From NCBI GenBank assembly GCA_965205365.1, contig CBDBGT010000010.1, forward strand, positions 328,048-392,047: 64,000 nucleotides of DNA, read 5' to 3'. Made by a program: the position numbers and the translations under genes. The DNA is from Bdellovibrionales bacterium (GTDB lineage: Bacteria > Bdellovibrionota > Bdellovibrionia > Bdellovibrionales > UBA1609). Below, piece by piece: positions 18,194 to 51,425 of the stretch. Under the pieces are notes generated by a model. It saw only the letters and a list, made by a program, of their open reading frames with translations, was not told the DNA's origin and ran no database searches. Numbering within the stretch: position 1 is the stretch's first letter; every line of letters starts with the position of its first letter.

Positions 18194-18999
18194 ATGAATA
18201 TGAAATCAAAATCTATATTACCAATATGTTTATTATTTAGTTTTACAGCTTGTCAGAATGTTGAACACTCTTCTCAAGGGAAGCGTACATTAACAAGTTT
18301 AGATAAGTCAGACACTTTATTAGGTGATTCAAATGACTCAGAAAGATCAAACCCTCAAGGGGGGGGGGGGGGGGGGGGGCAGATAGCCTCTTAGGTGACT
18401 CAAGCGGATCAAACACATCAAACCCTCAAAACGAAGACAACCAAGGTGACCTTACCAGTGAGTCAACCATTGATCTTCCAACCGGTTGGTATAAAACTGG
18501 CTGTATAAGACTGCCCAACGAATATATTTTTAACAACCTTAGGTACAACAGTGTAAAGTATTTTCTTGCCATAGATACTGATGACTTTCATTACTCCATG
18601 TATCCCAACAGTCCTTATAATTATTTTACTCACAGCGCTCTATATTTCCAAGAAACTAATTGTACTGGACGCTCTAATCCTAATTATGGGCAGGCTGGGG
18701 ACAGCCTTACACACAGCCCATACTATGACACCAATGATAACTTTGGTAACAATACCTCCTATTTTACAATTGGTCTTGGTTCAACTAGAGCCTTTGGATT
18801 TCATATTGATGATGATGGTGCCCTTTATATAGATCATGCTATTGCTACTGATGACATAGGTTCAGGTTTCCAAGAAAGTACTTCTTCTAATTTTATCAAT
18901 GACCCAACAAGTGGAGTTAGGTATACACGCACATCTTCAAAAGCAGTTTGGAGCACTACCCGCAACAAATGGGTATGGCCAGGTATCAATATGTTATGA
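18194..18999 (+). CDS. phase-variable lipoprotein family, copy G; OFF (G21)
   Basis: Track ORF 18194-18394 ends ..GGGGGGGQIAS*. The frame from GCA at 18379 (ADSLLGDSSGSNTSNPQNEDNQGDL...) is open into track ORF 18598-18999, as I verified by translation. Confidence 0.75.
18359..18379 (+). repeat. poly-G tract G21, copy G
   Basis: Counted directly. G22 or G19 is needed for ON. Confidence 0.9.
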
Positions 19000-27060: not shown

Positions 27061-29656
27061 GTTTTAAAAAAATACTTATATGTTTAAAGAATCTATCTAA
27101 AATTTAAACGATTTTAATAAAGAAATTAAAACTTTCCCCCTATAAAAGCACCATTGAAATAAAAAATCTGGAGAAAGTATGAAGCCTCTCCATGTTAAAA
27201 AGTCCTTTAAAGAACCCCTAGAAACCTTGAAAATTATGAGCAAAGTCATGAGTTTTCGCCTCTAGCCTTTAGTTTAAGGCTTTGTCTTAAAAAGAACTAA
27301 GTGGAGCAAGTGATACTCCTATGAATGAAAAATAATACTAAAGTATTTTTTTAAATACACCGACTTTAGTATTGAAAGTTAAATGAAGTTAAAGGAGCAG
27401 TGGGTGTTAAATAATAAAAATCTTTTTTTACCGTTACTATTGATTTTGTTAGGCTGGGGGTTTTATAGCTCTCAGACTTTCTTAGAAAATAATGAGGTCA
27501 AGGTATCTCATAATTTAAACCAAACAAGATCTGTGTCTAGTATTCAGACGCTTAAGCAAAATCTTTTAAAAGCCTCATTAAAACCAACTTCAACTCTTAA
27601 GAATAAACAGGTAGAAATAAAAAAGCCCACTCTTTTTAAAACTTTTAAACCTCTACCAGAAGAACTAGAGGAGTTTAAAAATCGCCACTCTGACGAACCC
27701 TCTGGGTTTACTATGGAGCTATCTGGTTTAAATGTGGACTTTGAAGCCTTTAAAAAAGTAGAGCACCCTTTGGATTTGCCAGACAAACTTCAAATTCCAC
27801 TTCCTAATGGAAAAACGGTTCAAGTGGAGCAAAAAAGAGTAGACTATAAAAAGAAAGATAGTTTTGTTTGGGTAGGACAAGTTGATGAAAAGCTTAATCA
27901 ATGGGTTCATCTCTCATTTTATAAGTCTACTCTTTCTGGGGCACTTCATGCATCAGGTAGCGACTACAGGATTGATTATTTATCAAAAAATAAACATTTA
28001 ATTCGTAAAGTAAATGAAAGTCTACTTCCTGAACCAATTGATGATGTTGTTGAACCTGAAGTAGCAAATGCACCCTCAAAGGCAGAAGAAGATGCCTTGG
28101 CATTAGAAACCACTCACTCTCCTGCTCTTATAGCCAATACTTCCAACCCGGTTGTCATAGACATATTAGTTGCATACACACAGCGTGTTAGTAAAAATAG
28201 AACCCATGACGAAATCCTTGCTAAAATCAATAACCTTATAGCTTATACAAATACCGCTCATAGCACCTCTCAAACTGGGGTAATCTTTCGTCTAACTCGA
28301 GCTGTTGAAACTTCATATACAGAGAATTTAACAGACGATTCAAATCCTTTGTCTCTGCTGCAACGTAAGACTGATGGAGTTATGGATGAAATACATGACA
28401 TACGAGATGAAACAAATTCTGATCTCGTCACTTTACTCCAAAAAAAGTATCCTGGGTCTGCTTGGTACACTCAATCAAAATCAACGGGCTTTGGTCAAGT
28501 ATACGACACCAACTCTACCATCTTTGCTCATGAAACTGGCCATAACCTTTCAGCTCGCCATGATAGGCAAAACACCTTTTATCCTCCTTCATCATCACGT
28601 TACGATTATGGTTATAGAAGTCCAGAAAGAAGGCTTCGGACTATAATGGCTTACCCATGTAGTTATGCTGCTTTTGGTGAAAAACCCACTTCTTCTTGCA
28701 ACCATAGGGTTCCTGCTTTTTCAAGCCCTCGATCTATTAATGGAGAAGTTCCTTATGGAGATGCCATTACAGATAATTCAAGAAAGATTAAAGAGTCAGC
28801 TTTCCGTGTGTCTAATATTTACCCCTCAGGATCTACAGACCAAACTCCTCCTCGTATTATTTCTCAACCTACGAGTAAAAGCTTACCAGCAAATGGTACT
28901 TTAAACCTATCTGTAACTGCTAGTGGATCTTCTCTTCTCTATCAGTGGTATAAAGAGGGTAGAGCAATATCGAATCAAACAAATAAAACCCTTTTAATAA
29001 GTAACGTGAGTCAAAGTGATGAAGGAAGATATAGAGTAAAAATAAGCAACTCTTCTAGTTCAATTTACTCCAATACAGTGACTGTAACTATAGATCAAGC
29101 CCCTATTATCACATTACAGCCTCACAGCACTACCATTAATGTCAATGACAGCTTAAGTTTATCTGTAACTGCCAATGGGGAAAACCCTTTAACTTACCAG
29201 TGGTATAAAAATAGTGTGGAAATATTGAACCAAACAAGTAAAACTCTTTTAATAAATAATGTCAGTCAAAGTGATGAAGGAACATATAAAGTAAAAGTAA
29301 GCAATGCTTACGGCTCAGTTTATTCTAATGCAGCCACTGTAAATGTGAGACTGTCTCCTGTTATCACACTGCAACCTCAAAATACCACTATACAAGTCAA
29401 TAACAATTTAAGTTTGTCTGTAAACGCCAGTGGTGAGGGTTCTTTAAATTACCAGTGGTATAAAAATAATATAGAAATGCCTAGTAAAACCAATAAGACT
29501 CTTTTAATAAGTAATGTGAGTCAAAGTGATGGAGGAGCATATAAAGTAAAAGTAAGCAACTCTTACGGCTCAGTTTATTCTAATACAGTGACTGTAAATA
29601 TAAAACTCTCTCCTGTTATCACATTACAACCTCAAAACACCATTATTAAGGCTAAT

Positions 29657-30678
29657 AACCCGAGTTCGAACTTTCTAAACCTACTGAAGCAGCCTTTCTT
29701 CAAGTACTTGAAGTCTAATAGAGGGTTTTCTTGGACGCAAACAGTACGCCGTTAGTGCCGAAAGTAAATTTACCACAAAGTTTTTTGGGCTTCGGTGTCT
29801 TGAGTGTTCAAGATGAAATTCCTCCTTTAAAATCCCAAAAGCAGTTTCAACAATGTACCTTTTCCTCAGGAGTAGTTTATCAAAAAGAGGAACAAACTTA
29901 TTTTTCATATTGGATTTAAGATTTGTTATGACTTGAACCCCTTTACTCATCAATTTTTCAAATAGCTTTTGGGATATATATCCTTTGTCTCCAAACAATT
30001 TTCCAAAAATATTCTCAGCTAAACCCTCTACAGGCTTTGTATCATGAACATTTCCTGGGGTTATGGTAAAACTTAAGAGCTCCCCTTTGTGAGAAATTAC
30101 TATGTGAACTTTAAAACCAAAGAACCAGCCCATTGTTGATTTCCCACGTTTTGCAAGTCCTTTAAAGGTTTTGTGACGACCGATTCTTTTGTTATTACAA
30201 ACAACAATGGGACTGGAGTCTACAACAGATATTCCTGTGCAAATATTTGATTGCATAAGTGAGTGTAAAAAAATAAGAATTTGAGGTGCTGAAGATTTTT
30301 TAAGTTCTACAAACCTATTGTAGGACAAGAGTTTTGGGAAATAAGGTTTTAGAAATTTTTGAACATAACCTGTATAGAAAGCTTTAAAATTTCTGAAGCC
30401 GGAAAATTGGAATAATAAACAGATGGTGATGACTTCAGACTCAGATAACGCAGATGGAAAACCTCTCTTTCTTTTGCTGGGTATGAGTTTGGACTGTTCT
30501 TTGTTTAACCCTAAAATAAAGTCGTCAACAAGAGTAAAAACTTCTATAATTTGATTCTCTTCGATCATTCCCGGCTCCTTTTTGCAGATCAGTAAAAAAC
30601 AACTAAATCTTACAAAAGGCTGGGATGATCTTTTATTTATCCAGCACTTAGGTCCTGAAAAAAGTTCGAACTCGGGTT
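29657..30678 (-). mobile_element. IS982-family element, copy 2 (1022 bp, intact)
   Basis: Ends AACCCGAGTTCGAACTTTCTAAACC ... AAAAGTTCGAACTCGGGTT. Flanking duplication is AAT or TAATA (boundary ambiguous). It has an intact 295-aa ORF. Confidence 0.9.
29681..30568 (-). CDS. IS982-family transposase
   Basis: 295 aa: ...VDSSPIVVCNNKRIGRHKTFKGLAKRGKSTMGWFFGFKVH...GDKGYIS...RYIVETAFGILKEEFHLEHSRHRSPKNF. Size and motifs fit IS982 DDE transposases. Confidence 0.8.
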   Translation of the reverse strand: MIEENQIIEVFTLVDDFILGLNKEQSKLIPSKRKRGFPSALSESEVITICLLFQFSGFRNFKAFYTGYVQKFLKPYFPKLLSYNRFVELKKSSAPQILIFLHSLMQSNICTGISVVDSSPIVVCNNKRIGRHKTFKGLAKRGKSTMGWFFGFKVHIVISHKGELLSFTITPGNVHDTKPVEGLAENIFGKLFGDKGYISQKLFEKLMSKGVQVITNLKSNMKNKFVPLFDKLLLRKRYIVETAFGILKEEFHLEHSRHRSPKNFVVNLLSALTAYCLRPRKPSIRLQVLEERLLQ

Positions 30679-31879
30679 AATAACAACTTAAATTTATCTG
30701 TACGCGCTAACGGTGAAAACCCTTTAACTTATCAGTGGTATAAAAATAGTGTGGAAATATCCGATCAAACAAGTAAAGCTCTTTTAATAAATAACGCAAG
30801 CCAAAGTGATCAAGGAATATATAAAGTAAAGGTAAGCAACGCTCACGGCGCAGTTTATTCTAAAGTAGCAGCTGTAATTGTAAGGCCCTCTCCTATGATC
30901 ACATCACAACCTCAAAACACCATAGTCAACGCCAACGAAAGCTTAAGTTTATCTGTAAGTGCCAGTGGAACTTCTCTTCGCTACCAGTGGTATAAAGATA
31001 ATGTACCCATATCGAATCAAACAAGCAAAACTCTTTTAATAAACAACGCAAATCAAAATGATGAAGGAACATACAAAGTAAAAGTAAGCAATGCTTACGG
31101 CTTAGTTTATTCTAATGCAGTGACTGTGCGTGTAGAATTTTCTTCCATCACCATATCTGAGCTTCCCATTATCACATCACAACCTCAAAACACCATAGTC
31201 AACGCCAATGAAAGCTTACGTTTATCTGTAAGCGCTAGTAGTGAGGCTCCTTTAAGCTACCAGTGGTATAAAAACACCCAAGGTCAATCAAAAACTCTTT
31301 TAGGCCAAACAAATAACTTTCTTTCAATACCAAAAGCCTCTCGTTCCCATGAGGGATGGTACGTGGTGAGGGTTTACAACTCTTATGGGTACGTTGACTC
31401 TAGTTGGGTTAAGGTGAATATAGTTTTAACTTTAAATGCTGGGCCTCCTATTATCACATCACAACCTCAAAACACCACCATTAATGCCAATGAAAACTTA
31501 AGTTTATCTGTAAGTGCAAGTGGAGCTTCTCTTCGCTACCAGTGGTATAAAAGCACTCAAGGTCGATCAAAAGCTCTTGTAGGCCAAACAACTAACCTTC
31601 TTTCCATACCAAAAGCCTCTCGTTCCCATGAGGGATGGTACGTGGTGAGGGTTTATAACTCCTATGGGCACATTGATTCTAGTTGGGTTAAAGTTTATAT
31701 AGATTAAACGTACTGTCTGCAGAAAACGGGCCTCTTAATCACACAAGGTGGTGTTTTAAAAATCTTAATAAATATAGATTTTTACAAAAGTTTTTCTACT
31801 ATTATATAATATGAAAAAATATCTAAGATAAATGTAAGCACATAGATCACTCAAGTTATAGTGAGAAAGTTAGGGTAAA

Positions 31880-34270: not shown

Positions 34271-35022
34271 GGTTCATGGGTAGTTAAGTTGACTTTGAAG
34301 GGAGTTAACTTATTATTATCACTGTGAAAAATAGGTATTTTGCTCGTTCAAGAATTTCAGAGGCTAAATTCAGGGAGATTATCAAGCTTTTTGCCAGTGA
34401 TTTAACAACTCAACAGATTTCAGAATTAACAAAGCTTAACAGAAAAACTATAGGAAATATTTTAAAAAAAGTACGATCAAAAATAGTTGAGCAATGCGAA
34501 CAAGAAAGCCTTTTTGACTCTGGTGAAATAGAACTGGATGAAAGTTATTTTGGAGCAAGGAGAGTTAGAGGTCTTCGCGGAAGAGGAGCTAGAGGTAAAA
34601 CCATTGTCTTTGGGCTTAAAAAAAGAAATGGTAAGGTTTATACTCAGATTATTAAAAACTGCTCTAAAAACGAGATTCTCCCTCTTATACGGGCTAAAAT
34701 AAGCAAGGAGTCTACAGTTTATACAGATGGCTTTAGGACGTATGATGGTCTTGTGGATATGGGTTATAAAAAACACTACAGAGTTCATCATGGAAAAAAT
34801 GAATTTTCAAAAGCTGAAGGAAAAGTTAAAAACCATATTAATGGAATAGAGAATTTTTGGGGCTTAGCCAAAGTAAGACTTTCTAAATTTAGAGGAATGC
34901 ATAAGAATACTTTTTATTTGCATTTAAAGGAGTGTGAGTTTAGGTTCAATCACAGAAATGAAGACCTCTATAGATTAATTCTTTCTATGCTGCGTCGTAA
35001 CCCTCTTAACTACCCATGAACC
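34271..35022 (+). mobile_element. IS1595-family insertion sequence (752 bp)
   Basis: Perfect 18-bp IRs GGTTCATGGGTAGTTAAG. The 8-bp duplication AAAACTTA is at 34263-34270 and 35023-35030. Confidence 0.9.
34324..35019 (+). CDS. IS1595-family (ISXO2-like) DDE transposase
   Basis: 231 aa with IELDESYFG..RGRGARGKTIVFGL, VYTDGFRTYDGL, INGIENFWG and YLHLKECEFRFNHR, the typical IS1595 pattern. Confidence 0.85.
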   Translation: MKNRYFARSRISEAKFREIIKLFASDLTTQQISELTKLNRKTIGNILKKVRSKIVEQCEQESLFDSGEIELDESYFGARRVRGLRGRGARGKTIVFGLKKRNGKVYTQIIKNCSKNEILPLIRAKISKESTVYTDGFRTYDGLVDMGYKKHYRVHHGKNEFSKAEGKVKNHINGIENFWGLAKVRLSKFRGMHKNTFYLHLKECEFRFNHRNEDLYRLILSMLRRNPLNYP

Positions 35023-37951: not shown

Positions 37952-38167
37952 ACACGAGTTCGGACTTTTTAAATCTGGTTTAACATTCTATTTTCATGGG
38001 TTTAAACACGTAAACAAGAGTAAAAACTTCTACAATTTAAGCCTCTTTGATCACTCCTAGCTCTTTTTTATAGGCCAGAGTAAAAAATAACTACATCTTA
38101 CAAAAGACTTAAGGTGATCTTTTATTTATTTAAAACTTAGGTCCTTAGAAAAGTCCGAACTCGGGTT
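37952..38167. mobile_element. MITE-like internally deleted derivative of an IS982-type element (~216 bp)
   Basis: Ends ACACGAGTTCGGACTTT ... AAAGTCCGAACTCGGGTT. The interior keeps the first ~50 nt of the transposase 5' region (CAAGAGTAAAAACTTCTACAATTT...) and its upstream leader. Confidence 0.65.
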
Positions 38168-38375
38168 AATTTAAAACAAAAAAAAAGATAATCTTTATTT
38201 GTTTTTTTTAACATAAGACTTATTTTTTCCAACACTTCCTGCCTAAAAGTAAAAAAACTGTACATTTAAATGACTAAACTTCTGAAAGATTTTCACAAAT
38301 AACTTTTTAACTAGATATTTTAACATAAGTTTTGTATATTCCGCCCTAAGTTAAGATAATCAAACAGTAAACCAA

Positions 38376-39868: not shown

Positions 39869-40327
39869 TTAAATTTTTCTTTTTTTAGTTAAGTTTTTTA
39901 ACAATCTTTTTGTTAAATTAAAAACAAGAGGTTTTTGAGCAAAGCCCCTGTACTTAATAATTCGACCGTCCTTAAAACCTTTTAAGTTTGCAAATTTCTC
40001 AAGCCTAAACCCTGGATCGTAGAAAAAAACACCGTGATGTTTTTTTGCAATGGAATACTGATCTAGCAATGGTCCTACTTGTCTCCAAAAATAAATTGAA
40101 ACTACAACTTTAATATTTTTAGATTTTATTGTTTCAATGTTTCTTTCAACAAATTCAAAGCAACTTTTACACTCTTTATTTAAAAATATTACATATACAG
40201 TGTCCTCTCCCAAGAGACTCATTTCATTAGGATCTGACGCTCTTTGAAGTAAAAAAAGTTTTTGATTTGCAGCAATACAAACATTAAAAAACAACGTTAT
40301 AATTATAAAAACCACTTTAAATTTCAT
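39869..40327 (-). CDS. exported thioredoxin-fold-like protein with a CxxC motif
   Basis: 152 aa with a signal peptide and VIFLNKECKSCFEF (C-K-S-C), positioned as in thioredoxin-like oxidoreductases. Confidence 0.45.
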   Translation of the reverse strand: MKFKVVFIIITLFFNVCIAANQKLFLLQRASDPNEMSLLGEDTVYVIFLNKECKSCFEFVERNIETIKSKNIKVVVSIYFWRQVGPLLDQYSIAKKHHGVFFYDPGFRLEKFANLKGFKDGRIIKYRGFAQKPLVFNLTKRLLKNLTKKRKI

Positions 40328-40331
40328 GCTC

Positions 40332-41177
40332 TTACTCCGATGTTAAATTAAATAGGTACATGCCATTTTGAAACTCCGCAGATGATAAAAAAGTATGCCT
40401 CTTATTGTTTTGAAAATTTAAAAAAAATGACTTCTCCTTAAATGCATATTCTAAAGTTTTACCTTCTAAACAAGTTAAACCATTTTCAATATCCTTGGTG
40501 GGACCAAAACATTCAAATCCAGCACTCACACTAAGCAAGGGATAAATTATTTTTACTCTAACCCTTATTCCTGTTAAAACATTCCCCTCTGTAAACTGTG
40601 GCAAATCAAAAATCACATCAGAGATGTTGTTAAATACAATGTCACCATCATCAGGAGAAACGCTGCCTGGAGTGTTTGAAGAACCCATATCGATAATCAA
40701 CTGACCACTTCTGTGGGTGCTCTTATTATAGGTTTCATTTTTTTTCCTAAAAAAAACACCTGTAGGTCGGTACACACTTTTCATTAAAAGAGGGGTGTTT
40801 AATGAAGAAAGCGTGACCTCTCTTGCAAAATACATAATCGTTTTACTCTCCATAGTTCCCATAGATGCGTCTTGAGTGTATTCAAAACTTCTCACAAACC
40901 CTGCCCCATCGAAAGAACCCTGAGTGCCATCTAGCTCTTCATTGAAATAACGAACATTCACTCCCGAAAGTGCTATGGATTTTAATGTGGCTTCTAAAAA
41001 ATGTATATCAGATTCAATTTGATTTATTTTCTCAAATTTAGTACTTGTTATTTTTAAGTTCAGCATTATAGAAGCACCTCCAAAAATAATGAAAGAGCCT
41101 ATTGTAAAAGAAACTATAAGCTCCAACAATGTCATACCTGACATTAGTTTGAAATTCTTAAATTCTATTTTTTCCAT
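40332..41177 (-). CDS. prepilin-type (pseudopilin / minor pilin-like) protein
   Basis: 281 aa starting MEKIEFKNFKLMSG|MTLLELIVSFTIGSFIIFGG. This is a class III signal with Gly at -1 and Glu at +5. Confidence 0.65.
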   Translation of the reverse strand: MEKIEFKNFKLMSGMTLLELIVSFTIGSFIIFGGASIMLNLKITSTKFEKINQIESDIHFLEATLKSIALSGVNVRYFNEELDGTQGSFDGAGFVRSFEYTQDASMGTMESKTIMYFAREVTLSSLNTPLLMKSVYRPTGVFFRKKNETYNKSTHRSGQLIIDMGSSNTPGSVSPDDGDIVFNNISDVIFDLPQFTEGNVLTGIRVRVKIIYPLLSVSAGFECFGPTKDIENGLTCLEGKTLEYAFKEKSFFLNFQNNKRHTFLSSAEFQNGMYLFNLTSE

Positions 41178-42151
41178 AAAACCTCCAAAAAATCATTTTT
41201 CAATAACTTAAAAGGCAAAAGCAGCTCAGCGACAATTGGTTTTTCTAAAATATCCTCATACCCTTTAACGCCCATCTGAAAAACTTCATTCTTCTGTGGT
41301 TTATAAAATGTTCCAAATATTAAATCCCATACAGATAAGACAACACCAAAATTTTTATCCCCATGCTTTACATCTGAACTATGATGTATTTGATGCATAT
41401 AGGGGCTTATAAACATATAACTTAACCTCCCATATCCTATGCGAATATGACTATGTCTTAAATGTATAATGATATTGAAAAATATCACATTATAAACAAT
41501 TGGATTTATATAAATGTCAGGTGTTCCATAAATTTTTACTTTTAAAATTAAAATTATATACCCTAAACTTACAAATACCGCTGAAAAAATTTCGTTAAAT
41601 AAATAATCCAGAGGGTGTTGTCGGGTTTTAGTAAACGGAGTTAAAGATGTGGCCAGATGATGAATCATATGAAAACGCCAGAATGTTTTTATTTTATGCC
41701 TTAAAAAATGACTCAAGAATGCTGAAAAATCAATTAATAAAAAAGTTACAAACGAGAGCCAAATAGGCCCATAATAGGCATCTAAATAAATTGCTGGTTC
41801 TAAACTTAGAAGCCCAGAATCTCTAAGGGTGGATTCAACAAAATCCTTAATTTCATTTAAATTAATGGCAAAAAAACCAAAGAACAATGGTTTAAATAAA
41901 AATCGAAGAAAAAAGTAATAAAAATCTTTATACATTTCTAAACGACAACACTTATTATAAAAAAACCCATTAATTTCTTTTATAACATTTTTATTTTCAA
42001 TAAAAAACATGTACGCAATACCAAATAAAAAACTAGTGATAAACCATAAAAAATAATAAAAATGATAGTTTTCAAAAAATATTATTTTATTAAATAAGTC
42101 TAATGGTTGAGTCCAAAAAAATAATAAAAAATCATCAATTCGCTCCCTCAT
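41165..42151 (-). CDS. fatty acid hydroxylase / sterol desaturase-superfamily membrane protein
   Basis: His boxes HFLRH, HMIHH and HQIHH, and multi-TM. I chose the start at Met34 (MRERIDDF...) of track ORF 41165-42250, because the first 33 codons read the out-of-frame remnant of the pilin-like gene tail. Confidence 0.7.
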   Translation of the reverse strand: MRERIDDFLLFFWTQPLDLFNKIIFFENYHFYYFLWFITSFLFGIAYMFFIENKNVIKEINGFFYNKCCRLEMYKDFYYFFLRFLFKPLFFGFFAINLNEIKDFVESTLRDSGLLSLEPAIYLDAYYGPIWLSFVTFLLIDFSAFLSHFLRHKIKTFWRFHMIHHLATSLTPFTKTRQHPLDYLFNEIFSAVFVSLGYIILILKVKIYGTPDIYINPIVYNVIFFNIIIHLRHSHIRIGYGRLSYMFISPYMHQIHHSSDVKHGDKNFGVVLSVWDLIFGTFYKPQKNEVFQMGVKGYEDILEKPIVAELLLPFKLLKNDFLEVLWKK

Positions 42152-42180
42152 AAATTCACTTCTTTCACCTAAGGGCACCA

Positions 42181-42378
42181 TCAGCGCCATCGCCACTCGG
42201 TGGAGGCGGCGGTGGATTGTATGAACATGTATTTTCCATAGTTTTTCCAATTTAAAGTCTCTTTGTTCAATCTAGAATTGCTATAATAGCCAAAGCTAAG
42301 AACAAAAGTTAGCAGTATTGACGCGGACACCATCACTTCAATGAGCGAAAACCCATTTAACTTCTTATTTATCATCAA
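42181..42378 (-). pseudogene. internally deleted copy (Y0) of the large type IV pilin-like gene; keeps its own start and prepilin leader
   Basis: MMINKKLNG|FSLIEVMVSASILLTFVLSFGYYSNSRLNKETLN is joined directly to the C-terminal ...ACTATGGAAAATACATG... region of the full-length copies, but out of frame (..WKNYGKYMFIQSTAASTEWRWR*). Confidence 0.75.
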
Positions 42379-42389
42379 CTCCCCTCTTA

Positions 42390-43019
42390 TTAAAACTGTC
42401 TTATGGCAAAAGTTTGAACAATCTTATCTAAACCTGAACAGGCGAACTCTCCATTTAAACAAAATGCAATGGAAAAACATTCAGTATGGCTCATAGTGCA
42501 ATCAACATAATTTGAATTGAGATTGTTTCCTATGTCTTTTACAGGAAACGTCACATAAGCTAAGGCTTTAGTAGATGAACCACCTACCCTAACAGGTTCT
42601 ACGTTTAAACTTAATCCTGTGTAAATACCTTTTTCATACTGCCTTAACAGAGGAAGAGAGGGTGGAGGGGTAGCTGGAGCAGGACTGCCTCCACTTGGTC
42701 CTCTTTGCCCTGAAATACATAGTTTTTGGCCATTTTCTAGATTTTTAAGAAAGCATCCTTCTTCAATTTCAAGCCAACACAATTTAAGTCCAAGATTTAA
42801 CCCTGGATCTTCTTTTGAACCTGCTGGGCACCCTACAAGCTCCTGCCCAAGATCGTATGCTTCGCGTGTTTTTCTTACAATTTCAAGTTGAGCATTAATT
42901 CTTAAAAGCCTTCTTTTAAAAATTATAGTCGTGTTTTCACCCATATCAAGGGACGTTGTTACATTAGCTATTAATACAAGGGCAAAGGTTACGATCATTA
43001 TTACAAATGAAATTAACAT
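42390..43019 (-). CDS. small Cys-containing membrane-anchored protein X (pilus-locus associated)
   Basis: 209 aa with an N-terminal hydrophobic helix MLISFVIMIVTFALVLIAN. It is the only full-length copy. Units 2 and 3 keep only its first ~32 and last ~70 codons. Confidence 0.55.
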   Translation of the reverse strand: MLISFVIMIVTFALVLIANVTTSLDMGENTTIIFKRRLLRINAQLEIVRKTREAYDLGQELVGCPAGSKEDPGLNLGLKLCWLEIEEGCFLKNLENGQKLCISGQRGPSGGSPAPATPPPSLPLLRQYEKGIYTGLSLNVEPVRVGGSSTKALAYVTFPVKDIGNNLNSNYVDCTMSHTECFSIAFCLNGEFACSGLDKIVQTFAIRQF

Positions 43020-43025
43020 AGTTAC

Positions 43026-44543
43026 CCTAAATGCGACAAAAATTTAAAGGGTTTTAAAGAAGAAAAAGATTGAAAGACCTAAGGCAACTTGGTTTCATTG
43101 AGTTACTAAAAACAAAAAACATTGTAACCAAAGGCCATTTCAATGAGATATAGAAGACAAGATATTTTAAGCGTCGTCAAATCCGATTTACAAATTGAGT
43201 TTGCTAAGCAGAGCATTACGTCTTACTCAGGGCTTGAACTTTTCAGAAAATACTTTCACCTCATAAACCTTAATTCCCGCATCAGATCTGCCTTTCGCGG
43301 TTTTGACTTTGGCGGAGACTACAGTGTTGTTCACTATGTTTTAGTTTTTATTGCACTGTGGCTTACAGGCGGTAAGCGCCTGCGACATATAGGCTTTATT
43401 GGCGATGACCCTCTTGTTAAAAGGCTTTGTGGGCTTAAGACTTTACCATCAGATCGAACTGTCAGCAGATGGCTAGGTCAGTTTACAAATGATTCGCTCC
43501 AAGCCTTAGTAAAGTTAAATTCAGATATGGCCTTAGAAAAAGTTGGAGAGCTTGACCTAAAAACTGTAACTCTAGATTTTGACGGCACTGTTCTAAGCTG
43601 TGGCAATCAAGTTGAATGGGCTTTTAGAGGCTACAATCCAAAGAGACGATACTCAAAAAGTTACTTTCCACTTCTTTGCTATATTGCTCAAACTGGACAT
43701 TTTTTAAAAGTCAAAAATCGTCCAGGCAATGTTCATGATGGAAAATCAGGCGCTTTGGAAACCATCAAAGCATCTGTTAGTGAGGTCGAATCTAAACTTG
43801 GAAAAGTTAGACTTGAGACCCGTATGGATTCAGCATTTTTTAAAGAGGACATTTTAAAGTATTTACTTTCATCAAAAATAGAGTTTGCGATGAAGGTTCC
43901 GATGTGGAGATGGCTAGGGTTAAAAGACATGATCAACAGTCGCATTAGATGGAATCACTCAAATTCAAAGCTGGCTTGGTTTTACAAGGAGATTGAAGTT
44001 CCTGCATGGGGTATCACTATACCGCTTTATTTTTTCAGATCAAAAATCTCTGACAAGATTCCAAAGTCAGGCCACCAGTTAGATTTGTTTACTCCAGATG
44101 ATGGTGTTTATGAGTACTCAGTCATCACTTCAAATAAAGACATCTGTGCGGATAAGGTTTTAGATTTTTTCAATGGCAGGTGTGCAATGGAGCATCAGAT
44201 TTCAGAACTAAAGGGTGAGTTTGCATTTGATGTGGTGCCAACCAGATCCTATCAAGGCAACTCTGCTCATCAAAACATTTCACTCTTGGCTTACAATTTA
44301 GTTCGCAATTTTCAAATTGATTCAAGTTTAACAGAAGCTAGGAAAAAAACTGCAAAAAGGACAAATATTTTTTCTGCTCAGTCTTTAAAAACACTGCGGT
44401 TTGAGATGATTGCAACTGCTGGCAGAATTCTAAACTCTTCAGGTGCTAAAATTTTAAGAATCAATCAGAATACTCAAAGAGAGCACCTTTACCAAAAAAT
44501 TCAAAAGCATCTAAAGGCAGCTTAAATTTTTGTCGCATTTAGG
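43026..44543 (+). mobile_element. IS1380-family insertion sequence (1518 bp)
   Basis: IRs CCTAAATGCGACAAAAATTTA (both ends). The 4-bp duplication TTAC is at 43022-43025 and 44544-44547. Confidence 0.85.
43143..44525 (+). CDS. IS1380-family transposase
   Basis: 460 aa with PSDRTVSRWL, TLDFDGTVLSCGNQVEWAFRGYNPKRRYSKSYFPL and CAMEHQISELKGEF...LLAYNL. This fits the IS1380 pattern. Confidence 0.8.
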   Translation: MRYRRQDILSVVKSDLQIEFAKQSITSYSGLELFRKYFHLINLNSRIRSAFRGFDFGGDYSVVHYVLVFIALWLTGGKRLRHIGFIGDDPLVKRLCGLKTLPSDRTVSRWLGQFTNDSLQALVKLNSDMALEKVGELDLKTVTLDFDGTVLSCGNQVEWAFRGYNPKRRYSKSYFPLLCYIAQTGHFLKVKNRPGNVHDGKSGALETIKASVSEVESKLGKVRLETRMDSAFFKEDILKYLLSSKIEFAMKVPMWRWLGLKDMINSRIRWNHSNSKLAWFYKEIEVPAWGITIPLYFFRSKISDKIPKSGHQLDLFTPDDGVYEYSVITSNKDICADKVLDFFNGRCAMEHQISELKGEFAFDVVPTRSYQGNSAHQNISLLAYNLVRNFQIDSSLTEARKKTAKRTNIFSAQSLKTLRFEMIATAGRILNSSGAKILRINQNTQREHLYQKIQKHLKAA

Positions 44544-44910
44544 TTACTTAACCTCATTATAAGAAGAAGGTTTATTAATATTCTTGCTCAATTCAACTAT
44601 AAATACAAATCCTATGAAATAAGACTTTAGATTAAAGTTTCTATAAAATTTAGTTTGAGAATGATTTAGTTTACTACAAAAAATGAATTGATTGAAGAAT
44701 TAATGCTACATAAATAGGTTCCATTTAAGATAAAAGTCTAGCGCCTCACCACTTTAAAACTTTTCCACTGTTGAACAATTATCCTAAGGCTCCCCTTCCT
44801 GATTGCACCAACTCTTAATTAAAAACCAAAAATAATAATAAAAAATCCTTAATTTACTCCTATAGACTCACTTCTTTCACCCGTTGGCACCATCAGCAGA
44901 GGGGCCAGCA

Positions 44911-46562
44911 CTAAGGACCATCACCACCATCATTACCACCATCACCATCACCATCACTACCATCAGCATCACCACCATCACGATTACCATCTTTGCCGCC
45001 GTCACCGTCACGACCGCCGCCGCTACTGCCACCGTCATTACTAACCCAGCTACCGTCACCCCGGCCGCCACCAACCCACTTTCTCCCGCAGCTCCCGCTA
45101 CCACCACTCGGTGGAGGAGGTGGATTGTATGAGCATGTATTTTCCATAGTTCTTCCACCACGAGGACACCAACCCACTCCTGTATAATAACCCGTGCACG
45201 GTCTACAAGTAGATAACGGCAGTGACGCCATGATCTGAGACGCAGCCACTGCTGATATATTGTGAGCTATATCTATATAACGTGCCTTTAAAGACATTCG
45301 ACATCCAAAACCTAAATTAGAATAACGTAAATTATACCCCAAATTAGACTCTGCTCTATTTATGTTGTCAGGCGCCTTACCACACAAGGTCACTTCGTTA
45401 CAACGCACCCATTTTCCTGACGTTGTAAAAGATGTCTTAACCGCTCCACCTGGACATACTGGAACTCCAGCTGGACCCTCAAACGTTGACTCATCTTTAC
45501 ACACCATTACAAAAGCTTTTGCTTTTGACTCCGCAAAGCCTGTTAAATCAACATTCATATTGATTCCTGTTGCACACTGAGGTGTTGGAGCGCTTTGATA
45601 CATATTGATGTTAATATTTCTTAGCTCGTTTTCATCAGCTGCAATTCTTGGATATGAAAAAAGAGAACTTAATGAACATTTTTTGTTGTCATTGTTTTTA
45701 CCAATATAACTTGTTGTCGCTGTAATCCAAAAACCTATATCAGAACACCCATTGTCTTCAACAGTGATTCCATCTAAAAAATCTTTTGACTGTGGATGCC
45801 CTAACCTACTCCCACCAGGTATGGCTAACACTGGCCATGGATTACAAGACCGCTCTCCTGTTAGAATGTTATAAACCTCTATTTTTAAGGTTGTTACTGG
45901 TGATTTTAATCTGTACTCAACATCAGAATCTTCTAAACTCATAGGCGCACTTCCCCTATAAGAGCGTCCATGAACAGTTGAGCAAAACCTACTGTCCTTA
46001 TTATAAATAGCATTTAATGTGGACATCACCCCTCGAAGAGACAAATAATTTCTAATAATGGTGTCTGAGCCTGTTTTAATCCACAGCTCTTCCTCATCAC
46101 CGACAATCTCATCATCATCAAAAAGAACATTAGATTTACCTAAACTGTTGTTTAAAAATTTAATTTCATTTGTATTGTCATCTAACTTAGCTACGGATTT
46201 TGCAACGCCCAAAGTCTTTAACTTATCTAAAGTTCCACGGGTATAGGATACACACTCTCTATGTAAGTTTAAAGTCTCTTTGTTCAACCTAGAATTGCTA
46301 TAATAGCCAAAGCTAAGAACAAAAGTTAACAGTATTGAAACAGACACCATCACTTCAATAAGTGAAAACCCATGTAACTTCTTGTGGTTCTTGTCTAAGC
46401 CTGAACAGGTGAACTCTCCATAGTTGTTTCCTATATCTTTTACAAGAGGCGTAACATAGGCTAAGGCTTTAGTAGATGAATCGCCTACCGTAACAGGTTC
46501 TATGTTTAAGCTTAATCCTGTGTAAGTACCTTTTTCATGCTGCCTTAGCAGAGAGAGAATAA
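44911..46562 (-). CDS. large type IV pilin-like protein Y1, with no start codon of its own; open frame runs from the C23 tract to the stop
   Basis: Track ORF 44911-46353 (480 aa) begins only at a GTG inside the prepilin hydrophobic segment. My translation shows the same frame is open back to the tract (LILSLLRQHEKGTYTGLSLNIEPV...GEFTCSGLDKNHKKLHG|FSLIEVMVSVS...). It has a Gly/Asp-rich tail. Confidence 0.7.
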
Positions 46563-46585
46563 GGGGGGGGGGGGGGGGGGGGGGG
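46563..46585 (-). repeat. homopolymer tract G23 on plus strand (C23 in the coding sense), unit 2
   Basis: Counted directly (8+10+5). Confidence 0.9.
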
Positions 46586-46679
46586 TGAATTGAGTTTTGA
46601 CCCTTAAAAACTTTCTTTTAAAAATCATAATCATGTTTTTACCCATATGAAGAGATGTTGTTACAAATAAAATTAACAT
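46586..46679 (-). CDS. X-derived leader ORF (start codon plus 31 codons) feeding into the C tract, unit 2
   Basis: ATG at 46679 gives MLILFVTTSLHMGKNMIMIFKRKFLRVKTQFT followed by poly-Pro. With C23 it terminates at a TAA 15 nt after the tract. Confidence 0.6.
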
Positions 46680-46697
46680 AGCGACTTAACCTTACTT

Positions 46698-47719
46698 AAC
46701 CCGAGTTCGAACTTTCTAAACCTACTGAAGCAGCCTTTCTTCAAGTACTTGAAGTCTAATAGAGGGTTTTCTTGGACGCAAACAGTACGCCGTTAGTGCC
46801 GAAAGTAAATTTACCACAAAGTTTTTTGGGCTTCGGTGTCTTGAGTGTTCAAGATGAAATTCCTCCTTTAAAATCCCAAAAGCAGTTTCAACAATGTACC
46901 TTTTCCTCAGGAGTAGTTTATCAAAAAGAGGAACAAACTTATTTTTCATATTGGATTTAAGATTTGTTATGACTTGAACCCCTTTACTCATCAATTTTTC
47001 AAATAGCTTTTGGGATATATATCCTTTGTCTCCAAACAATTTTCCAAAAATATTCTCAGCTAAACCCTCTACAGGCTTTGTATCATGAACATTTCCTGGG
47101 GTTATGGTAAAACTTAAGAGCTCCCCTTTGTGAGAAATTACTATGTGAACTTTAAAACCAAAGAACCAGCCCATTGTTGATTTCCCACGTTTTGCAAGTC
47201 CTTTAAAGGTTTTGTGACGACCGATTCTTTTGTTATTACAAACAACAATGGGACTGGAGTCTACAACAGATATTCCTGTGCAAATATTTGATTGCATAAG
47301 TGAGTGTAAAAAAATAAGAATTTGAGGTGCTGAAGATTTTTTAAGTTCTACAAACCTATTGTAGGACAAGAGTTTTGGGAAATAAGGTTTTAGAAATTTT
47401 TGAACATAACCTGTATAGAAAGCTTTAAAATTTCTGAAGCCGGAAAATTGGAATAATAAACAGATGGTGATGACTTCAGACTCAGATAACGCAGATGGAA
47501 AACCTCTCTTTCTTTTGCTGGGTATGAGTTTGGACTGTTCTTTGTTTAACCCTAAAATAAAGTCGTCAACAAGAGTAAAAACTTCTATAATTTGATTCTC
47601 TTCGATCATTCCCGGCTCCTTTTTGCAGATCAGTAAAAAACAACTAAATCTTACAAAAGGCTGGGATGATCTTTTATTTATCCAGCACTTAGGTCCTGAA
47701 AAAAGTTCGAACTCGGGTT
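46698..47719 (-). mobile_element. IS982-family element, copy 3 (1022 bp, intact)
   Basis: Same ends as copy 2. The flanking duplication is ACTT (or TACTTA). The uninterrupted target CCTTACTTAAGT is present in the paralogous unit at 49810-49821. Confidence 0.9.
46722..47609 (-). CDS. IS982-family transposase (identical to 29681-30568)
   Basis: The 295-aa translation is identical in the track. Confidence 0.8.
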   Translation of the reverse strand: MIEENQIIEVFTLVDDFILGLNKEQSKLIPSKRKRGFPSALSESEVITICLLFQFSGFRNFKAFYTGYVQKFLKPYFPKLLSYNRFVELKKSSAPQILIFLHSLMQSNICTGISVVDSSPIVVCNNKRIGRHKTFKGLAKRGKSTMGWFFGFKVHIVISHKGELLSFTITPGNVHDTKPVEGLAENIFGKLFGDKGYISQKLFEKLMSKGVQVITNLKSNMKNKFVPLFDKLLLRKRYIVETAFGILKEEFHLEHSRHRSPKNFVVNLLSALTAYCLRPRKPSIRLQVLEERLLQ

Positions 47720-48016
47720 ACTTAAGTAAAAAAATTTATTAATATTCTTGCTCAATTTAACTATAAATACAAATCCTATAAAATAAGGCTTTAGATTAAA
47801 AGTGCTATAAAGTTTAGTTTAAGAGCGATTTAGTTTACTACAAAAGATGAATTGATTCCGTTTAAGACAAAAGCCTAGTGCTTCCACCTCATTACTTTAA
47901 AACTTTTCCACTGTTGAACAATTATCCTAAGGCTCCTCTTCCTGATTACACCAACTCTAAATTAAAAACCAAAAATAATAATAAACACTTAATTTACTCC
48001 TATAGACTCACTTCTT

Positions 48017-49680
48017 TCACCCGTTGGCACCATCAGCAGATGGGCCACCACTACCATCAGAACCAGGACCACCATCACCACCATCAGCAGCACCACCACC
48101 ACTACCAGTGCCACCATCTTTGCCGCCGTCACCGTCACGACCGCCGCCGCTACTGCCACCGTCATTACTAACCCAGCTACCGTCACCCCGGCCGCCACCA
48201 ACCCACTTTCTCCCGCAGCTCCCGCTACCACCACTCGGTGGAGGAGGTGGATTGTATGAGCATGTATTTTCCATAGTTCTTCCACCACGAGGACACCAAC
48301 CCACTCCTGTATAATAACCCGTGCACGGTCTACAAGTAGATAACGGCAATGGCGCCATGAACTGAGACGCAGCCACTGCTGATATATTGTGAGCTATATC
48401 TATATAACGTGCCTTTAAAGACATTCGACATCCAAAACCTAAATTAGAGTAACGTAAATTATACCCCAAATTAGACTCTGCTCTATTTATGTTGTCAGGC
48501 GCCTTACCACACAAGGTCACTTCGTTACAACGCACCCATTTTCCTGACGTTGTAAAAGATGTCTTAACCGCTCCACCTGGACATACTGGAACTCCAGCTG
48601 GACCCTCAAACGTTGACTCATCTTTGCACACCATTACAAAAGCTTTTGCTTTTGACTCCGCAAAGCCTGTTAAATCAACATTCATATCAATTCCTGTTGC
48701 ACACTGAGGTGTTGGAGCACTTTGATACATATTGATGTTAATATCTCTTAACTCATTTTCATCAGCTGCAATTCTTGAGTATGAAAAAAGAGAGCTTAAT
48801 GAACATTTTTGATTGCTGTTGTTTTTACCAATATAACTTGTTGTCGCTGTAATCCAAAAACCTATATCAGAACGCCCATTGTCTTCAACAGTGATTCCAT
48901 CTAAAAAATCTTTTGACTGTGGATGCCCTAACCTACTCCCACCAGGTATGGCTAACACTGGCCATGGATTACAAGACCGCTCTCCTGTTAGAATGTTATA
49001 AACCTCTATTTTTAAGGTTGTTACTGGTGATTTTAATCTGTACTCAACATCAGAATCTTCTAAACTCATAGGCGCACTTCCCCTATAAGAGCGTCCATGA
49101 ACAGTTGAGCAAAACCTACTGTCCTTATTATAAATAGCATTTAATGTAGACATCACCCCTCGAAGAGACAAATAATTTCTAATAATAGTGTCTGAGCCTG
49201 TTTTAATCCACAGCTCTTCCTCCTCACCGACAATCTCATCATCATCAAAAAGAACATTAGATTTACCTAAACTGTTGTTTAAAAATTTAATTTCATTTGT
49301 ATTGTCATCTAACTTAGCTACGGATTTTGCAACACCCAAAGTCTTTAACTTATCTAAGGTTCCACGGGTATAGGATACACACTCTCTATGCAAATTTAAA
49401 GTTTCTTTGTTCAATCTAGAATTGCTATAATAGCCAAAGCTAAGAACAAAAGTTAACAGTATTGAAACAGACACCATCACTTCAATGAGTGAAAACCCAT
49501 GTAACTTCTTGTCTAAGCCTGAACAGGTGAACTCTCCATGGTTGTTTCTTATGTCTTTTACAAGAGGCGCAACATAAGCTACGGCTTTAGTAGATAAATG
49601 GCTTACCCTAACAGGTTCTATGTTTAAGCTTAATCCTGTGTAAGTACCTTTTTCATGCTGCCTTAGCAGAGAGAGAATAA
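48017..49680 (-). CDS. large type IV pilin-like protein Y2, with no start codon of its own; open frame runs from the C25 tract to the stop
   Basis: Track ORF 48017-49480 (487 aa). The same frame is open back to the tract (LILSLLRQHEKGTYTGLSLNIEPVRVSHL...GEFTCSGLDKKLHG|FSLIEVMVS...). Confidence 0.7.
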
Positions 49681-49705
49681 GGGGGGGGGGGGGGGGGGGG
49701 GGGGG
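49681..49705 (-). repeat. homopolymer tract G25 on plus strand (C25 in the coding sense), unit 3
   Basis: Counted directly (10+10+5). Confidence 0.9.
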
Positions 49706-49799
49706 TGAATTGAGTTTTGACCCTTAAAAACTTTCTTTTAAAAATCATAATCATGTTTTTACCCATATGAAGAGATGTTGTTACAAATAAAATTAACAT
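49706..49799 (-). CDS. X-derived leader ORF feeding into the C tract, unit 3
   Basis: ATG at 49799; same leader sequence as unit 2. With C25 it terminates at a TGA shortly after the tract. Confidence 0.6.
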
Positions 49800-50239
49800 A
49801 GCGACTTAACCTTACTTAAGTAAAAAAATTTATTAATATTCTTGCTCAATTTAACTATAAATACAAATCCTATAAAATAAGGCTTTAGATTAAAAGTGCT
49901 GTAAAGTTTGGTTTAAGGGCGATTTAGTTTACTACAAAAGATGAATTGATTCCGTTTAAGACAAAAGCCTAGTGCTTCCCCCTCATTACTTTAAAACTTT
50001 TCCACTGTTAAACAGTTATCCTAAGGCTCCTCTTCCTGATTACACCAACTCTAAATTAAAAATCACTTTCTAATTTTTAATTTTCTTCTGTTTAGTTAAA
50101 TCTAGAAAAACCTCACTAAATTCACTTTTTACGCTCTCTAAATAAATTTCTATTGTCTTTAATGCCCAAGCCTGTTTTTGATCTCTTCTAGATTAACTCT
50201 TTGTTCAAATGTATGAATCCCCTATGGATGTCAATATTT

Positions 50240-51263
50240 AACCCGAGTTCGGACTTTCTAAACCTACTGAAGCAGCCTTTCTTCAAGTACTTGAAGTCTA
50301 ATAGAGGGTTTTCTTGGACGCAAACAGTACGCCGTTAGTGCCGAAAGTAAATTTACCACAAAGTTTTTTGGGCTTCGGTGTCTTGAGTGTTCAAGATGAA
50401 ATTCCTCCTTTAAAATCCCAAAAGCAGTTTCAACAATGTACCTTTTCCTCAGGAGTAGTTTATCAAAAAGAGGAACAAACTTATTTTTCATATTGGATTT
50501 AAGATTTGTTATGACTTGAACCCCTTTACTCATCAATTTTTCAAATAGCTTTTGGGATATATATCCTTTGTCTCCAAACAATTTTCCAAAAATATTCTCA
50601 GCTAAACCCTCTACAGGCTTTGTATCATGAACATTTCCTGGGGTTATGGTAAAACTTAAGAGCTCCCCTTTGTGAGAAATGACTATGTGAACTTTAAAAC
50701 CAAAGAGAACCAGCCCATTGTTGATTTCCCACGTTTTCAAAGTCCTTTAAAGGTTTTGTGACGACCGATTCTTTTGTTATTACAAACAACAATGGGACTG
50801 GAGTCTACAACAGATATTCCTGTGCAAATATTTGATTGCATAAGTGAGTGTAAAAAAATAAGAATTTGAGGTGCTGAAGATTTTTTAAGTTCTACAAACC
50901 TATTGTAGGACAAGAGTTTTGGGAAATAAGGTTTTAGAAATTTTTGAACATAACCTGTATAGAAAGTTTTAAAATTTCTGAAGCCGGAAAATTGGAATAA
51001 TAAACAGATGGTGATGACTTCAGACTCAGATAACGCAGATGGAAAACCTCTCTTTCTTTTGCTGGGTATGAGTTTGGACTGTTCTTTGTTTAACCCTAAA
51101 ATAAAGTCGTCAACAAGAGTAAAAACTTCTATAATTTGATTTTCTTCGATCATTCCCGGCTCCTTTTTGCAGATCAGTAAAAAACAACTAAATCTTACAA
51201 AAGGCTGGGATGATCTTTTATTTATCCAGCACTTAGGTCCTGAAAAAAGTTCGAACTCGGGTT
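50240..51263 (-). mobile_element. IS982-family element, copy 4 (1024 bp, defective)
   Basis: Flanking duplication is ATTT (or TATTTA). It has the same TGA nonsense change, the same 2-bp insertion and the same GTTCGGAC end variant as copy 1. The track shows split ORFs 50737-51153 and 50264-50740. Confidence 0.85.
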
Positions 51264-51425
51264 ATTTATTAAGAACAATAAATTCTGTACTAAGATAAAA
51301 ATCTTTGCCATGACTATACCACTTGGCACGAGCCATTGCAGCCAAATCAGGCTATGTTTTCTGCTTAAAAAGGAAATACCTTTATTTTAAAAATTATTTT
51401 TTATAATTGCTATTTACTGTAACGC

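Follow-up and report, generated by a model that had tools for sequence, protein, structure and literature searches.

Switching of surface proteins by homopolymeric tracts is textbook knowledge in a few host-adapted pathogens (e.g. Neisseria, Campylobacter, Haemophilus). The closest described analogue, the Neisseria genes pilC1 and pilC2, each carry a homopolymer tract of G9-20 inside the reading frame (PMC5953494). Here we describe a locus in a Bdellovibrionales bacterium (contig CBDBGT010000010.1, positions 328,048 to 392,047; this whole stretch of 64,000 nucleotides (nt) is called the window) in which a non-coding upstream region (U), a small gene (X), and a large gene for a prepilin-type protein (Y) are present three times in tandem, with a long C tract ahead of each of the two full-length Y genes. 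We propose that these genes probably form a multi-copy, slipped-strand phase-variable (contingency) family built from a conserved two-gene module. Literature searches gave no report of repeat-mediated phase variation in Bdellovibrionales-like bacteria; here the same device would operate in a low-GC relative of the Bdellovibrionales, over both a pilin-like and a lipoprotein family.

As in pilC1 and pilC2, there are at least two paralogues of a pilus-associated surface protein, a 5′ homopolymer sets the reading frame, and each copy would be on or off independently. Unlike PilC, which is a PilY1-family tip or anti-retraction protein with an ordinary signal peptide, it is here the prepilin-type protein itself that would be switched, and the tract lies in a leader that was recycled from the decayed gene upstream and precedes a class III signal peptide; at 21-25, the tracts also reach or exceed the upper limit of the Neisseria pilC range. 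The opa genes of Neisseria resemble the locus in a different way, being multi-copy, scattered genes for surface proteins in which a leader-region repeat switches each copy independently, so that none, one, or several may be on. However, opa has a CTCTT pentamer, encodes outer-membrane beta-barrels and occurs in 11-12 copies, whereas the repeat here is a homopolymer, the protein is pilin-like, and there are 3-4 copies. Like type IV pilins and pseudopilins, Y has the motif G↓F-x-x-x-E (the arrow marks the cleavage site), a long helix at its N-terminus, and a hydrophobic segment of about 21 residues, and it is far larger than a standard pilin, as are the modular pilins that carry extra domains, for example, PilB of Streptococcus sanguinis (PMC8179133). 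Unlike known pilins, whose documented leaders have 6-26 residues (PMC4471445), the in-frame products of the fused genes would have leaders of 100-103 residues, and the beta-rich, 14-Cys head of Y matches no solved structure convincingly.

The three U-X-Y units, each about 3.1 kb, lie on the minus strand, as judged from the sequence read from 50300 to 42050, the list of open reading frames (ORFs), and the repeat families. The tandem array of a pilin-like module drawn in a preliminary description of this DNA was confirmed almost to the base by self-comparison, ORFs, and sequence. In the list below the remnant of X in units 2 and 3 is called X″, and the Y genes of units 1, 2, and 3 are called Y′, Y1, and Y2; coordinates are positions in the window, and those of the array are read on the minus strand unless marked.

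49800-50062, minus strand: U3, non-coding upstream region of unit 3, free of insertion sequences (IS), 97.6% identical to U2 and about 80% to U1
49706-49799, minus strand: X″3 5′ segment, ATG (49799) plus 31 codons (MLILFVTTSLHMGKNMIMIFKRKFLRVKTQF), sole start codon for Y2
49681-49705, minus strand: C25 homopolymer (G25 on the plus strand), putative frame switch of unit 3, poly-Pro in every frame
49496-49680, minus strand: X C-terminal remnant of unit 3, in frame with Y2, ending at the predicted leader Gly (..GLDKKLHG)
48017-49495, minus strand: Y2, mature prepilin-type protein (FSLIEVMVS..., F at 49495) with Gly/Asp-rich tail, and stop (48019-48017)
47721-48016, minus strand: U2, upstream region of unit 2 (repeat families D6, D8, D12-D14)
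46697-47720, minus strand: IS982-family element between U2 and X″2, 1,024 bp, transposase gene 47609-46722 (Pfam DDE_Tnp_1_3, 2.9e-67)
46586-46679, minus strand: X″2 5′ segment, ATG (46679) plus 31 codons
46563-46585, minus strand: C23 homopolymer, putative frame switch of unit 2
46369-46562, minus strand: X C-terminal remnant of unit 2, in frame with Y1 (..GLDKNHKKLHG)
44911-46368, minus strand: Y1, mature prepilin-type protein, and stop
44544-44910, minus strand: U1, upstream region of unit 1, starting with a copy of the 5′ end of a fatty-acid hydroxylase (FAH) gene
43026-44543, plus strand: IS1380-family element, ending 6 nt before the X ATG (Pfam DDE_Tnp_1_4, 5.6e-34)
42390-43019, minus strand: X, full length, 209 aa, with N-terminal hydrophobic segment and 8 conserved cysteines
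42181-42378, minus strand: Y′, deletion derivative of 65 codons with its own ribosome-binding site, start, and short leader (MINKKLNG↓FSLIEV)

In units 2 and 3 the collapsed X″ with its C23 or C25 tract is fused to a startless, full-length Y, in frame from the X C-terminal remnant onward, and U3 is intact, all as previously described. The tract is the only difference between these two units over a considerable stretch: the 94 nt before it (the whole X″ 5′ segment) and the 71 nt after it are identical, and tract length alone differs there, which makes the tract the fastest-changing site. When we varied tract length in silico, unit 3 read through (592-595 codons) only at C21, C24, C27, and C30, and unit 2 (587-590 codons) only at C18, C21, C24, and C27. 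With the actual tracts translation would stop after 48 codons in unit 3 (C25) and after 44 in unit 2 (C23), and at other lengths after 43-49 codons; in this assembly, neither Y1 nor Y2 is in frame with the one start codon available to it. Reading of the ORFs and sequence of Y1 and Y2 revealed no in-frame ATG, GTG, or TTG between the tract and the G↓F site. Tract length thus sets the frame of an otherwise intact ORF that has no alternative start. Homopolymers of at least about 8 are regarded as hypermutable. The window, with a GC content of about 34%, contains eight G/C runs of at least 11, among them C23 and C25.

A further copy, P0003 (548 aa), was found on a contig of 799,960 nt as the third member of the Y1/Y2 protein cluster. 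It is open from the X″ ATG through the end of Y, reading MLILF...KTQFT-PPPPPP-LILSLLRQ... directly into Y, and the T-P6-L of this protein implies a tract of C21. Its leader is that of unit 2, and its mature core differs from Y1 in 1 of 415 residues, at position 208, where its Arg is also present in Y2 and in the five closest homologues; its C-terminal tail (..NPPPPLLGGGGDGPGGPCGGDPGGGGGECRP) is unrelated. An origin of P0003 as a mosaic or gene-conversion product was considered and rejected, a single change in Y1 accounting for residue 208. We assigned P0003 to the genome of the window, since the window IS transposases are common to contigs of 838, 800, 526, and 328 kb and ten single-copy window proteins, all in single-member clusters, are confined to one contig, of 404,524 nt. 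On these sequence comparisons P0003 is most simply a fourth X″-Y copy in the same genome. Near-identical copies would then carry tracts of C21, C23, and C25, a length polymorphism of the kind that marks repeat-mediated phase variation, and in the assembly unit 2 (C23) and unit 3 (C25) would be off and the fourth copy (C21) on.

The state of the locus before the tract arose can be read from its relatives. Eight related loci were obtained, from contigs encoding homologues and from a genome scan with a six-sequence alignment, the five genome-scan loci being from metagenome-assembled genomes of Bdellovibrionales/Pseudobdellovibrionaceae. Each of the eight has, within reach of the contig, one X, one Y, an FAH/pilin-like gene, and a gene for a protein of about 150 aa, so that the ancestral single-unit locus suggested as a comparison beforehand was recovered, and runs of at least 8 C or G are absent from all eight. 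As the relatives have a single X-Y unit without a tract, the fusion and the tract are derived. The X of unit 1 aligned over its full length with its homologues from five related loci and kept all invariant residues, including eight cysteines. Of the eight cysteines invariant in the X family X″ retains one, and the N-terminal membrane helix is gone. Its 5′ segment is homologous to the X N-terminus minus a 13-residue hydrophobic core, and the missing blocks comprise this hydrophobic core, the first four conserved cysteines, and the C-terminal three-cysteine block (VDC..HTECF..FC). Where X has its Pro-rich linker (..SPAPATPPPS..), X″ has the C run. Units 2 and 3 have also lost the stop of X, the spacer, the ribosome-binding site, and the start of Y, which leaves Y startless and joined in frame to what remains of X; in unit 3, positions 49678-49496 form 61 codons up to ..GLDKKLHG. 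Before and after states thus stand side by side, the ancestral X with own-start Y in unit 1 and the derived fusion in units 2 and 3, offering a rare, readable example of the birth of a contingency locus, in which a dying upstream gene would have become a frame-switch leader.

Comparison of Y1 with Y2 provided evidence that the fused genes have been used. They differ in their tails, as had been noted, and in the 420-codon core at 30 nt (9 residues) instead of the roughly 10 substitutions counted earlier. Twenty of the core differences are synonymous and 10 are non-synonymous (synonymous divergence, dS, 0.075; ratio of non-synonymous to synonymous divergence, dN/dS, 0.136; binomial p 2.2e-7). 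In the X C-terminal remnant (53 codons), units 2 and 3 differ by 2 synonymous and 8 non-synonymous changes (omega about 1.26); by this measure the X remnant drifts neutrally and behaves like a disposable leader. No stop or indel was present inside the approximately 1.5 kb of Y1, Y2, or the fourth copy. The deletions are common to all fused copies, showing that the fusion is older than the divergence of Y1 and Y2; because it predates that split and Y evolved under purifying selection, the tract-dependent gene has been translated and selected.

These results bear directly on an explanation of the locus as a decaying pseudogene array, in which redundant copies were knocked out by deletions, C-run frameshifts, and IS insertions and the tracts are by-products. 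Y′ is certainly dead, little of X is left in X″, neither full-length Y gene is in frame in the assembly, and the genome is rich in IS elements (five IS982, an IS1380, two ISL3, and an IS1595-like element in 64 kb), all of which fit such decay. Yet the startless fusion is older than the Y1/Y2 split, and the Y core has kept a dN/dS of 0.14 (p 2e-7) and an uninterrupted coding sequence beside a remnant that is neutral; moreover, the fourth copy is in frame, and six lipoprotein genes of the window (see below) use the same tract device. The pattern expected of a pseudogene, neutral dN/dS with stops and indels, is seen in Y′ and the X″ remnants alone and not in Y1 or Y2. Decay of the whole array is therefore unlikely. 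The earlier statement that every unit is disabled holds for Y′, for the X″ remnants, and for the present frame of Y1 and Y2, but the tracts appear to be frame switches rather than scars, and the conclusion drawn from it, that the array is a set of silent versions, is not supported in view of the selection on Y, the in-frame fourth copy, and the similar lipoprotein tracts. On its sequence, Y′ of unit 1 alone is truly dead. Annotators should not label the Y1 and Y2 genes pseudogenes, and tract lengths are best reported from reads.

Purifying selection on Y is equally compatible with correction at the level of RNA or translation, that is, with stable DNA tracts on which RNA polymerase slippage or ribosomal frameshifting along 21-25 C mixes the frames and gives constitutive low expression of all copies, regardless of genomic tract length. 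Transcriptional slippage is documented for A/T runs shorter than 21-25, although it is as a rule less efficient when the hybrid is G:C than when it is A:U. The occurrence of C21 and C23 in copies that differ in 1 of 415 residues indicates that slippage does occur at the DNA level; the two processes are not mutually exclusive, and we regard RNA-level correction with stable tracts as improbable. A miscall of the homopolymers, with true lengths in frame (e.g. C24 in both units), the genes on, and the off state an artefact, is suggested by C23 and C25 each lying one base from the in-frame C24. However, seven of the nine tracts known in all (those of units 2 and 3, P0003, and the six lipoprotein genes) are out of frame, at varied offsets, and the large ORFs nearby, of 833, 1021, 790, and 736 aa, are uninterrupted, so that indel errors are not widespread; even if miscalls had occurred, tracts of such lengths would be inherently unstable and phase variation would still be expected, and we consider this explanation quite unlikely. 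The fraction in frame, two of nine, is close to the one in three expected if tract lengths drift freely. Finally, a cassette system like pilE/pilS, with units 2 and 3 as silent donors and a G-rich run (e.g. a G-quadruplex) initiating recombination, shares with this locus tandem, near-identical extra pilin-type copies beside the original locus and G-rich DNA nearby, where the strand opposite the C tract, with 23-25 G in a row, might fold into a G-quadruplex, but is highly improbable, for Y1 and Y2 are complete and translatable, including the N-terminus and, via X″, a start, and lie only 9 residues apart, no conversion tracts were seen, residue 208 of P0003 is explained by one Y1 change without mosaicism, and, instead of a complete expression locus with 5′-truncated silent copies, the would-be expression site in unit 1 has a deleted, frameshifted Y, the own-start copy Y′ being the truncated one.

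The identity of Y as a prepilin-type protein rests on several observations. Y1 and Y2 contain KKLHG↓FSLIEV and Y′ contains KKLNG↓FSLIEV, giving Gly at −1, Phe at +1, and Glu at +5, and the G↓F cleavage-motif residues are conserved throughout the Y family alignment. The search with the N_methyl hidden Markov model that had been named beforehand as a check placed Y1 and Y2 above the gathering cut-off (Pfam PF07963; 22.2 and 22.4 bits vs. 21.2), and the fourth copy, P0003, scored 18.1 against a cut-off of 16.3 for TIGR02532. An exhaustive HMMER search of the protein library gave a Y family of 86 cluster representatives at E ≤0.001, the closest of which are mostly 450-500 aa; the closest homologue carries the automatic name "pseudopilin PulG" from the Joint Genome Institute. 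A leader of about 10 residues, an own start, and G↓FSL(V/I)E were present in 12 of 12 Y homologues read or aligned. About 14 cysteines are conserved in the family (35-sequence alignment), and the closest homologues share the Gly/Asp-rich C-terminal tail. Against solved structures, the Y family profile matched the N-termini of a Geobacter pilin and PilA (E 4e-4). In the AlphaFold2 model of Y2 (mean predicted local distance difference test score, pLDDT, 82.4) residues 8-57 are predicted to form a helix (pLDDT about 87-94), followed by beta-rich domains, and the model of the in-frame X″-Y protein has the same helix and beta-rich domains. An N-terminal helix of about 50 residues is thus predicted ahead of a globular head. 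We conclude that Y is pilin-like at its N-terminus. A short leader of 6-26 aa is present in Y′ (8-9 residues) and in the 12 homologues and absent from Y1, Y2, and P0003.

A word-indexed protein search with X″-Y returned the cluster of the window alone, as did that with X, and the Y family emerged only with the exhaustive HMMER search; the plasmid collection gave no match. A scan of representative genomes with P0003 as query found no relative, which places the species of the window outside that collection, although the six-sequence alignment did find loci, and a metagenome scan with P0003 gave a single weak, short match, so no second strain was available for comparison of tract length. The tails of Y1 (44917-44991) and Y2 (48045-48107) consist of imperfect ACC/ATC-type triplet repeats that vary in length and sequence between copies, and these Gly/Asp-rich repeats may be a second, in-frame source of variation.

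We propose the following course of events. Comparison with the relatives shows that the ancestor had X in single copy, encoding a small, membrane-anchored, Cys-rich protein. Behind it lay Y, which had a ribosome-binding site of its own and encoded about 480 aa, including a class III (prepilin) signal peptide with a leader of some 10 residues, and then an FAH/pilin-like gene. The U-X-Y unit would have been duplicated in tandem in this genome, after which erosion left one X copy with 31 codons at the 5′ end and 53 at the 3′ end, its Pro-rich linker becoming a long C run. A further deletion would have taken the X stop, the spacer, and the Y start, leaving Y translatable only from the X″ ATG via the tract, and the derived copy would have been duplicated again to give units 2 and 3 and the fourth copy on another contig. 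During replication, slipped-strand mispairing at the C tract would alter its length and shift Y in or out of frame, each copy switching independently and reversibly, like the six nearby poly-G lipoprotein genes; we infer high-frequency, reversible switching within the population from these features. The X of unit 1, the sole intact X found for this genome (a single-member protein cluster), possibly serves all Y copies in trans.

The on-state product would begin with a disordered, positively charged extension of about 100 residues, predicted to be cytoplasmic, and cleavage by prepilin peptidase at KKLHG↓FSLIEV would free a normal mature Y. The in-frame leader is hydrophilic, contains 6-8 prolines, has a net charge of +7 and no transmembrane segment, and is modeled with a pLDDT below 50. 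Translation through a run of 6-8 prolines is probably EF-P-dependent. Prepilin peptidases cut on the cytoplasmic side (PMC4471445), and a charged, unstructured leader without a transmembrane segment is compatible with that location. A second kind of internal motif, which lends support as a precedent, occurs in the gene following Y in the same operon. In five relatives this gene is one continuous, conserved ORF (594-649 aa), in which an FA_hydroxylase domain precedes a pilin-like domain with an N_methyl motif at residues 323-402 (e.g. ..KKNQG↓FSLIELMV; consensus G↓F/Y-S-L-I-E-L), three of the five exceeding the gathering cut-off:

L001: 9466-11367
L003: 5175-6959
L004: 7446-9389
L005: 7463-9412
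L006: 7496-9403

The counterpart in the window is split into two ORFs (40332-42157) that overlap by 13 nt at ATGGAAAAAATAG. A prepilin motif behind a polytopic enzyme is unusual. If both the X″-Y extension and the FAH-pilin proteins of the five relatives are processed, pilin modules are released from long precursors, and we tentatively suggest, while holding it to be the less probable outcome, that in this lineage the class III signal, besides its N-terminal role, would act as an internal maturation site at which the peptidase frees pilin modules. If that is true, a gene remnant could be recruited as a disposable "switch cassette" ahead of a pilin. A predicted leader about four times any documented, together with the FAH-pilin fusions, provides a testable case for prepilin peptidases that accept internal sites.

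Several points weigh against the proposal of a phase-variable pilin-like family. The main one is that the tract lengths come from an assembly and not from reads, so that length heterogeneity in the population, and with it switching, is a prediction. Most sequencing platforms size homopolymers beyond 20 poorly, so the off calls at the tracts of 23-25 may reflect errors in the assembly, and the C21 of P0003 was deduced from its protein. The dN/dS values record past selection and are silent on the time since the very recent IS insertions. In unit 2, IS982 separates U2 from X″2, and a promoter and terminator scan was at background (28 sites vs. 24 expected by chance), no promoter being identified. 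The putative processing would act on a leader of about 100 residues, four times the longest documented. A Foldseek search of the PDB with the Y model gave no pilin match for the globular part, the best matches of the head being Ig-like sandwiches (TM-score about 0.15); most solved pilins are truncated, and modular pilins diverge. Genes for type IV pilus machinery (peptidase, assembly) were absent from the 64-kb window.

The IS insertions are recent additions to the array. The first 50-60 nt of the downstream FAH gene are included in the duplicated unit (families D13 and D14); copies of this 5′ end, as in the first 50 nt or so of U2 (47969-48016), mark the tandem-duplication junctions. The resemblance of unit 3 to the other units stops near 50062. 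A simple assembly artefact as the source of the triplication was rejected on the assembled sequence, the units being 2-20% diverged and having distinct IS junctions. An origin of the tracts as poly-G read-end artefacts was also rejected; contiguous homologous coding sequence flanks both sides of each. In unit 1, as already recognized, IS1380 lies 6 nt before the ATG of a full-length X and Y′ is a dead, 65-codon deletion derivative; Y′ has lost about 1.1 kb internally at a microhomology of 2-3 nt, with a shift of frame. The IS1380 element has a target-site duplication GTAA and a transposase gene (43143-44525) divergent from X, whose ribosome-binding-site region it displaced while supplying an AGGG of its own. 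The unit 2 IS982, flanked by a duplication of up to TTAAGTAA, lies upstream of the leader ATG where it had been placed, but its distance is 17-20 nt, according to the inverted-repeat end taken, and not a fixed 18 nt. It is 100% identical to the window copy at 29656-30679, and its insertion is therefore recent. It has the same orientation as X″2-Y1, with the transposase stop 43 nt from the X″2 ATG, and read-through transcription from it into X″2-Y1 is possible. On either side of the array lie the following:

39869-42157, minus strand: downstream partners, FAH (42157-41165), a 281-aa pilin-like protein (41177-40332), and a 152-aa protein (40327-39869)
about 50223-51280, minus strand: second IS982 copy, with frameshifted transposase gene, about 160 nt upstream of U3 and 99% identical to the unit 2 copy

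The FAH protein matched Pfam FA_hydroxylase (4.1e-20), and the 281-aa protein contains a weak N_methyl motif. Upstream of X, loci L001-L006 have a PQQ-like beta-propeller protein (425-472 aa) and two further conserved genes, and the window has IS982 and clpB instead; by this comparison the 5′ side of the window locus is rearranged.

Six paralogous lipoprotein genes lie on the plus strand between 3755 and 19000 and start with MNMKSKSILPVCLLFSFTAC↓QN..., a signal peptide with a lipobox. Each contains a poly-G tract 43-55 codons after the ATG:

3884-3895, plus strand: G12
5395-5411, plus strand: G17
6765-6788, plus strand: G24
9600-9610, plus strand: G11
16984-17002, plus strand: G19
18359-18379, plus strand: G21

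One of the six is in frame, the G19 copy (16819-17577, 252 aa). The family had no Pfam or NCBIfam match, and from its sequence it looks like a phase-variable surface family. All eight tracts of the window are G on the plus strand, though six of the genes are on the plus and two on the minus strand. Most 1-kb bins have a negative GC skew, as does the window cumulatively. The strand bias of the tracts is possibly tied to the direction of replication, but the independent events are few.

The IS load of the window is very high. One of the five IS982 copies or fragments is split by ISL3, the two ISL3 transposase genes are identical, and there is one IS1380 and one IS1595-like element. This load suggests a genome in flux, possibly host-restricted. 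The IS stretches are:

7894-9237
12267-14792
29656-30679
34324-35019
38003-38168
43026-44543
46697-47720
50223-51280

Rfam and tRNA scans of the whole window gave no matches. Three proteins (23516-26581, 27383-29755, and 30751-31707) contain multiple eukaryote-type immunoglobulin (Ig) domains (Pfam Ig_3 and I-set, E down to 1e-73), and one of the three also bears a reprolysin (M12B) metalloprotease domain. Together with the putative phase-variable surface genes, the Ig-domain proteins hint at association with a eukaryotic host.

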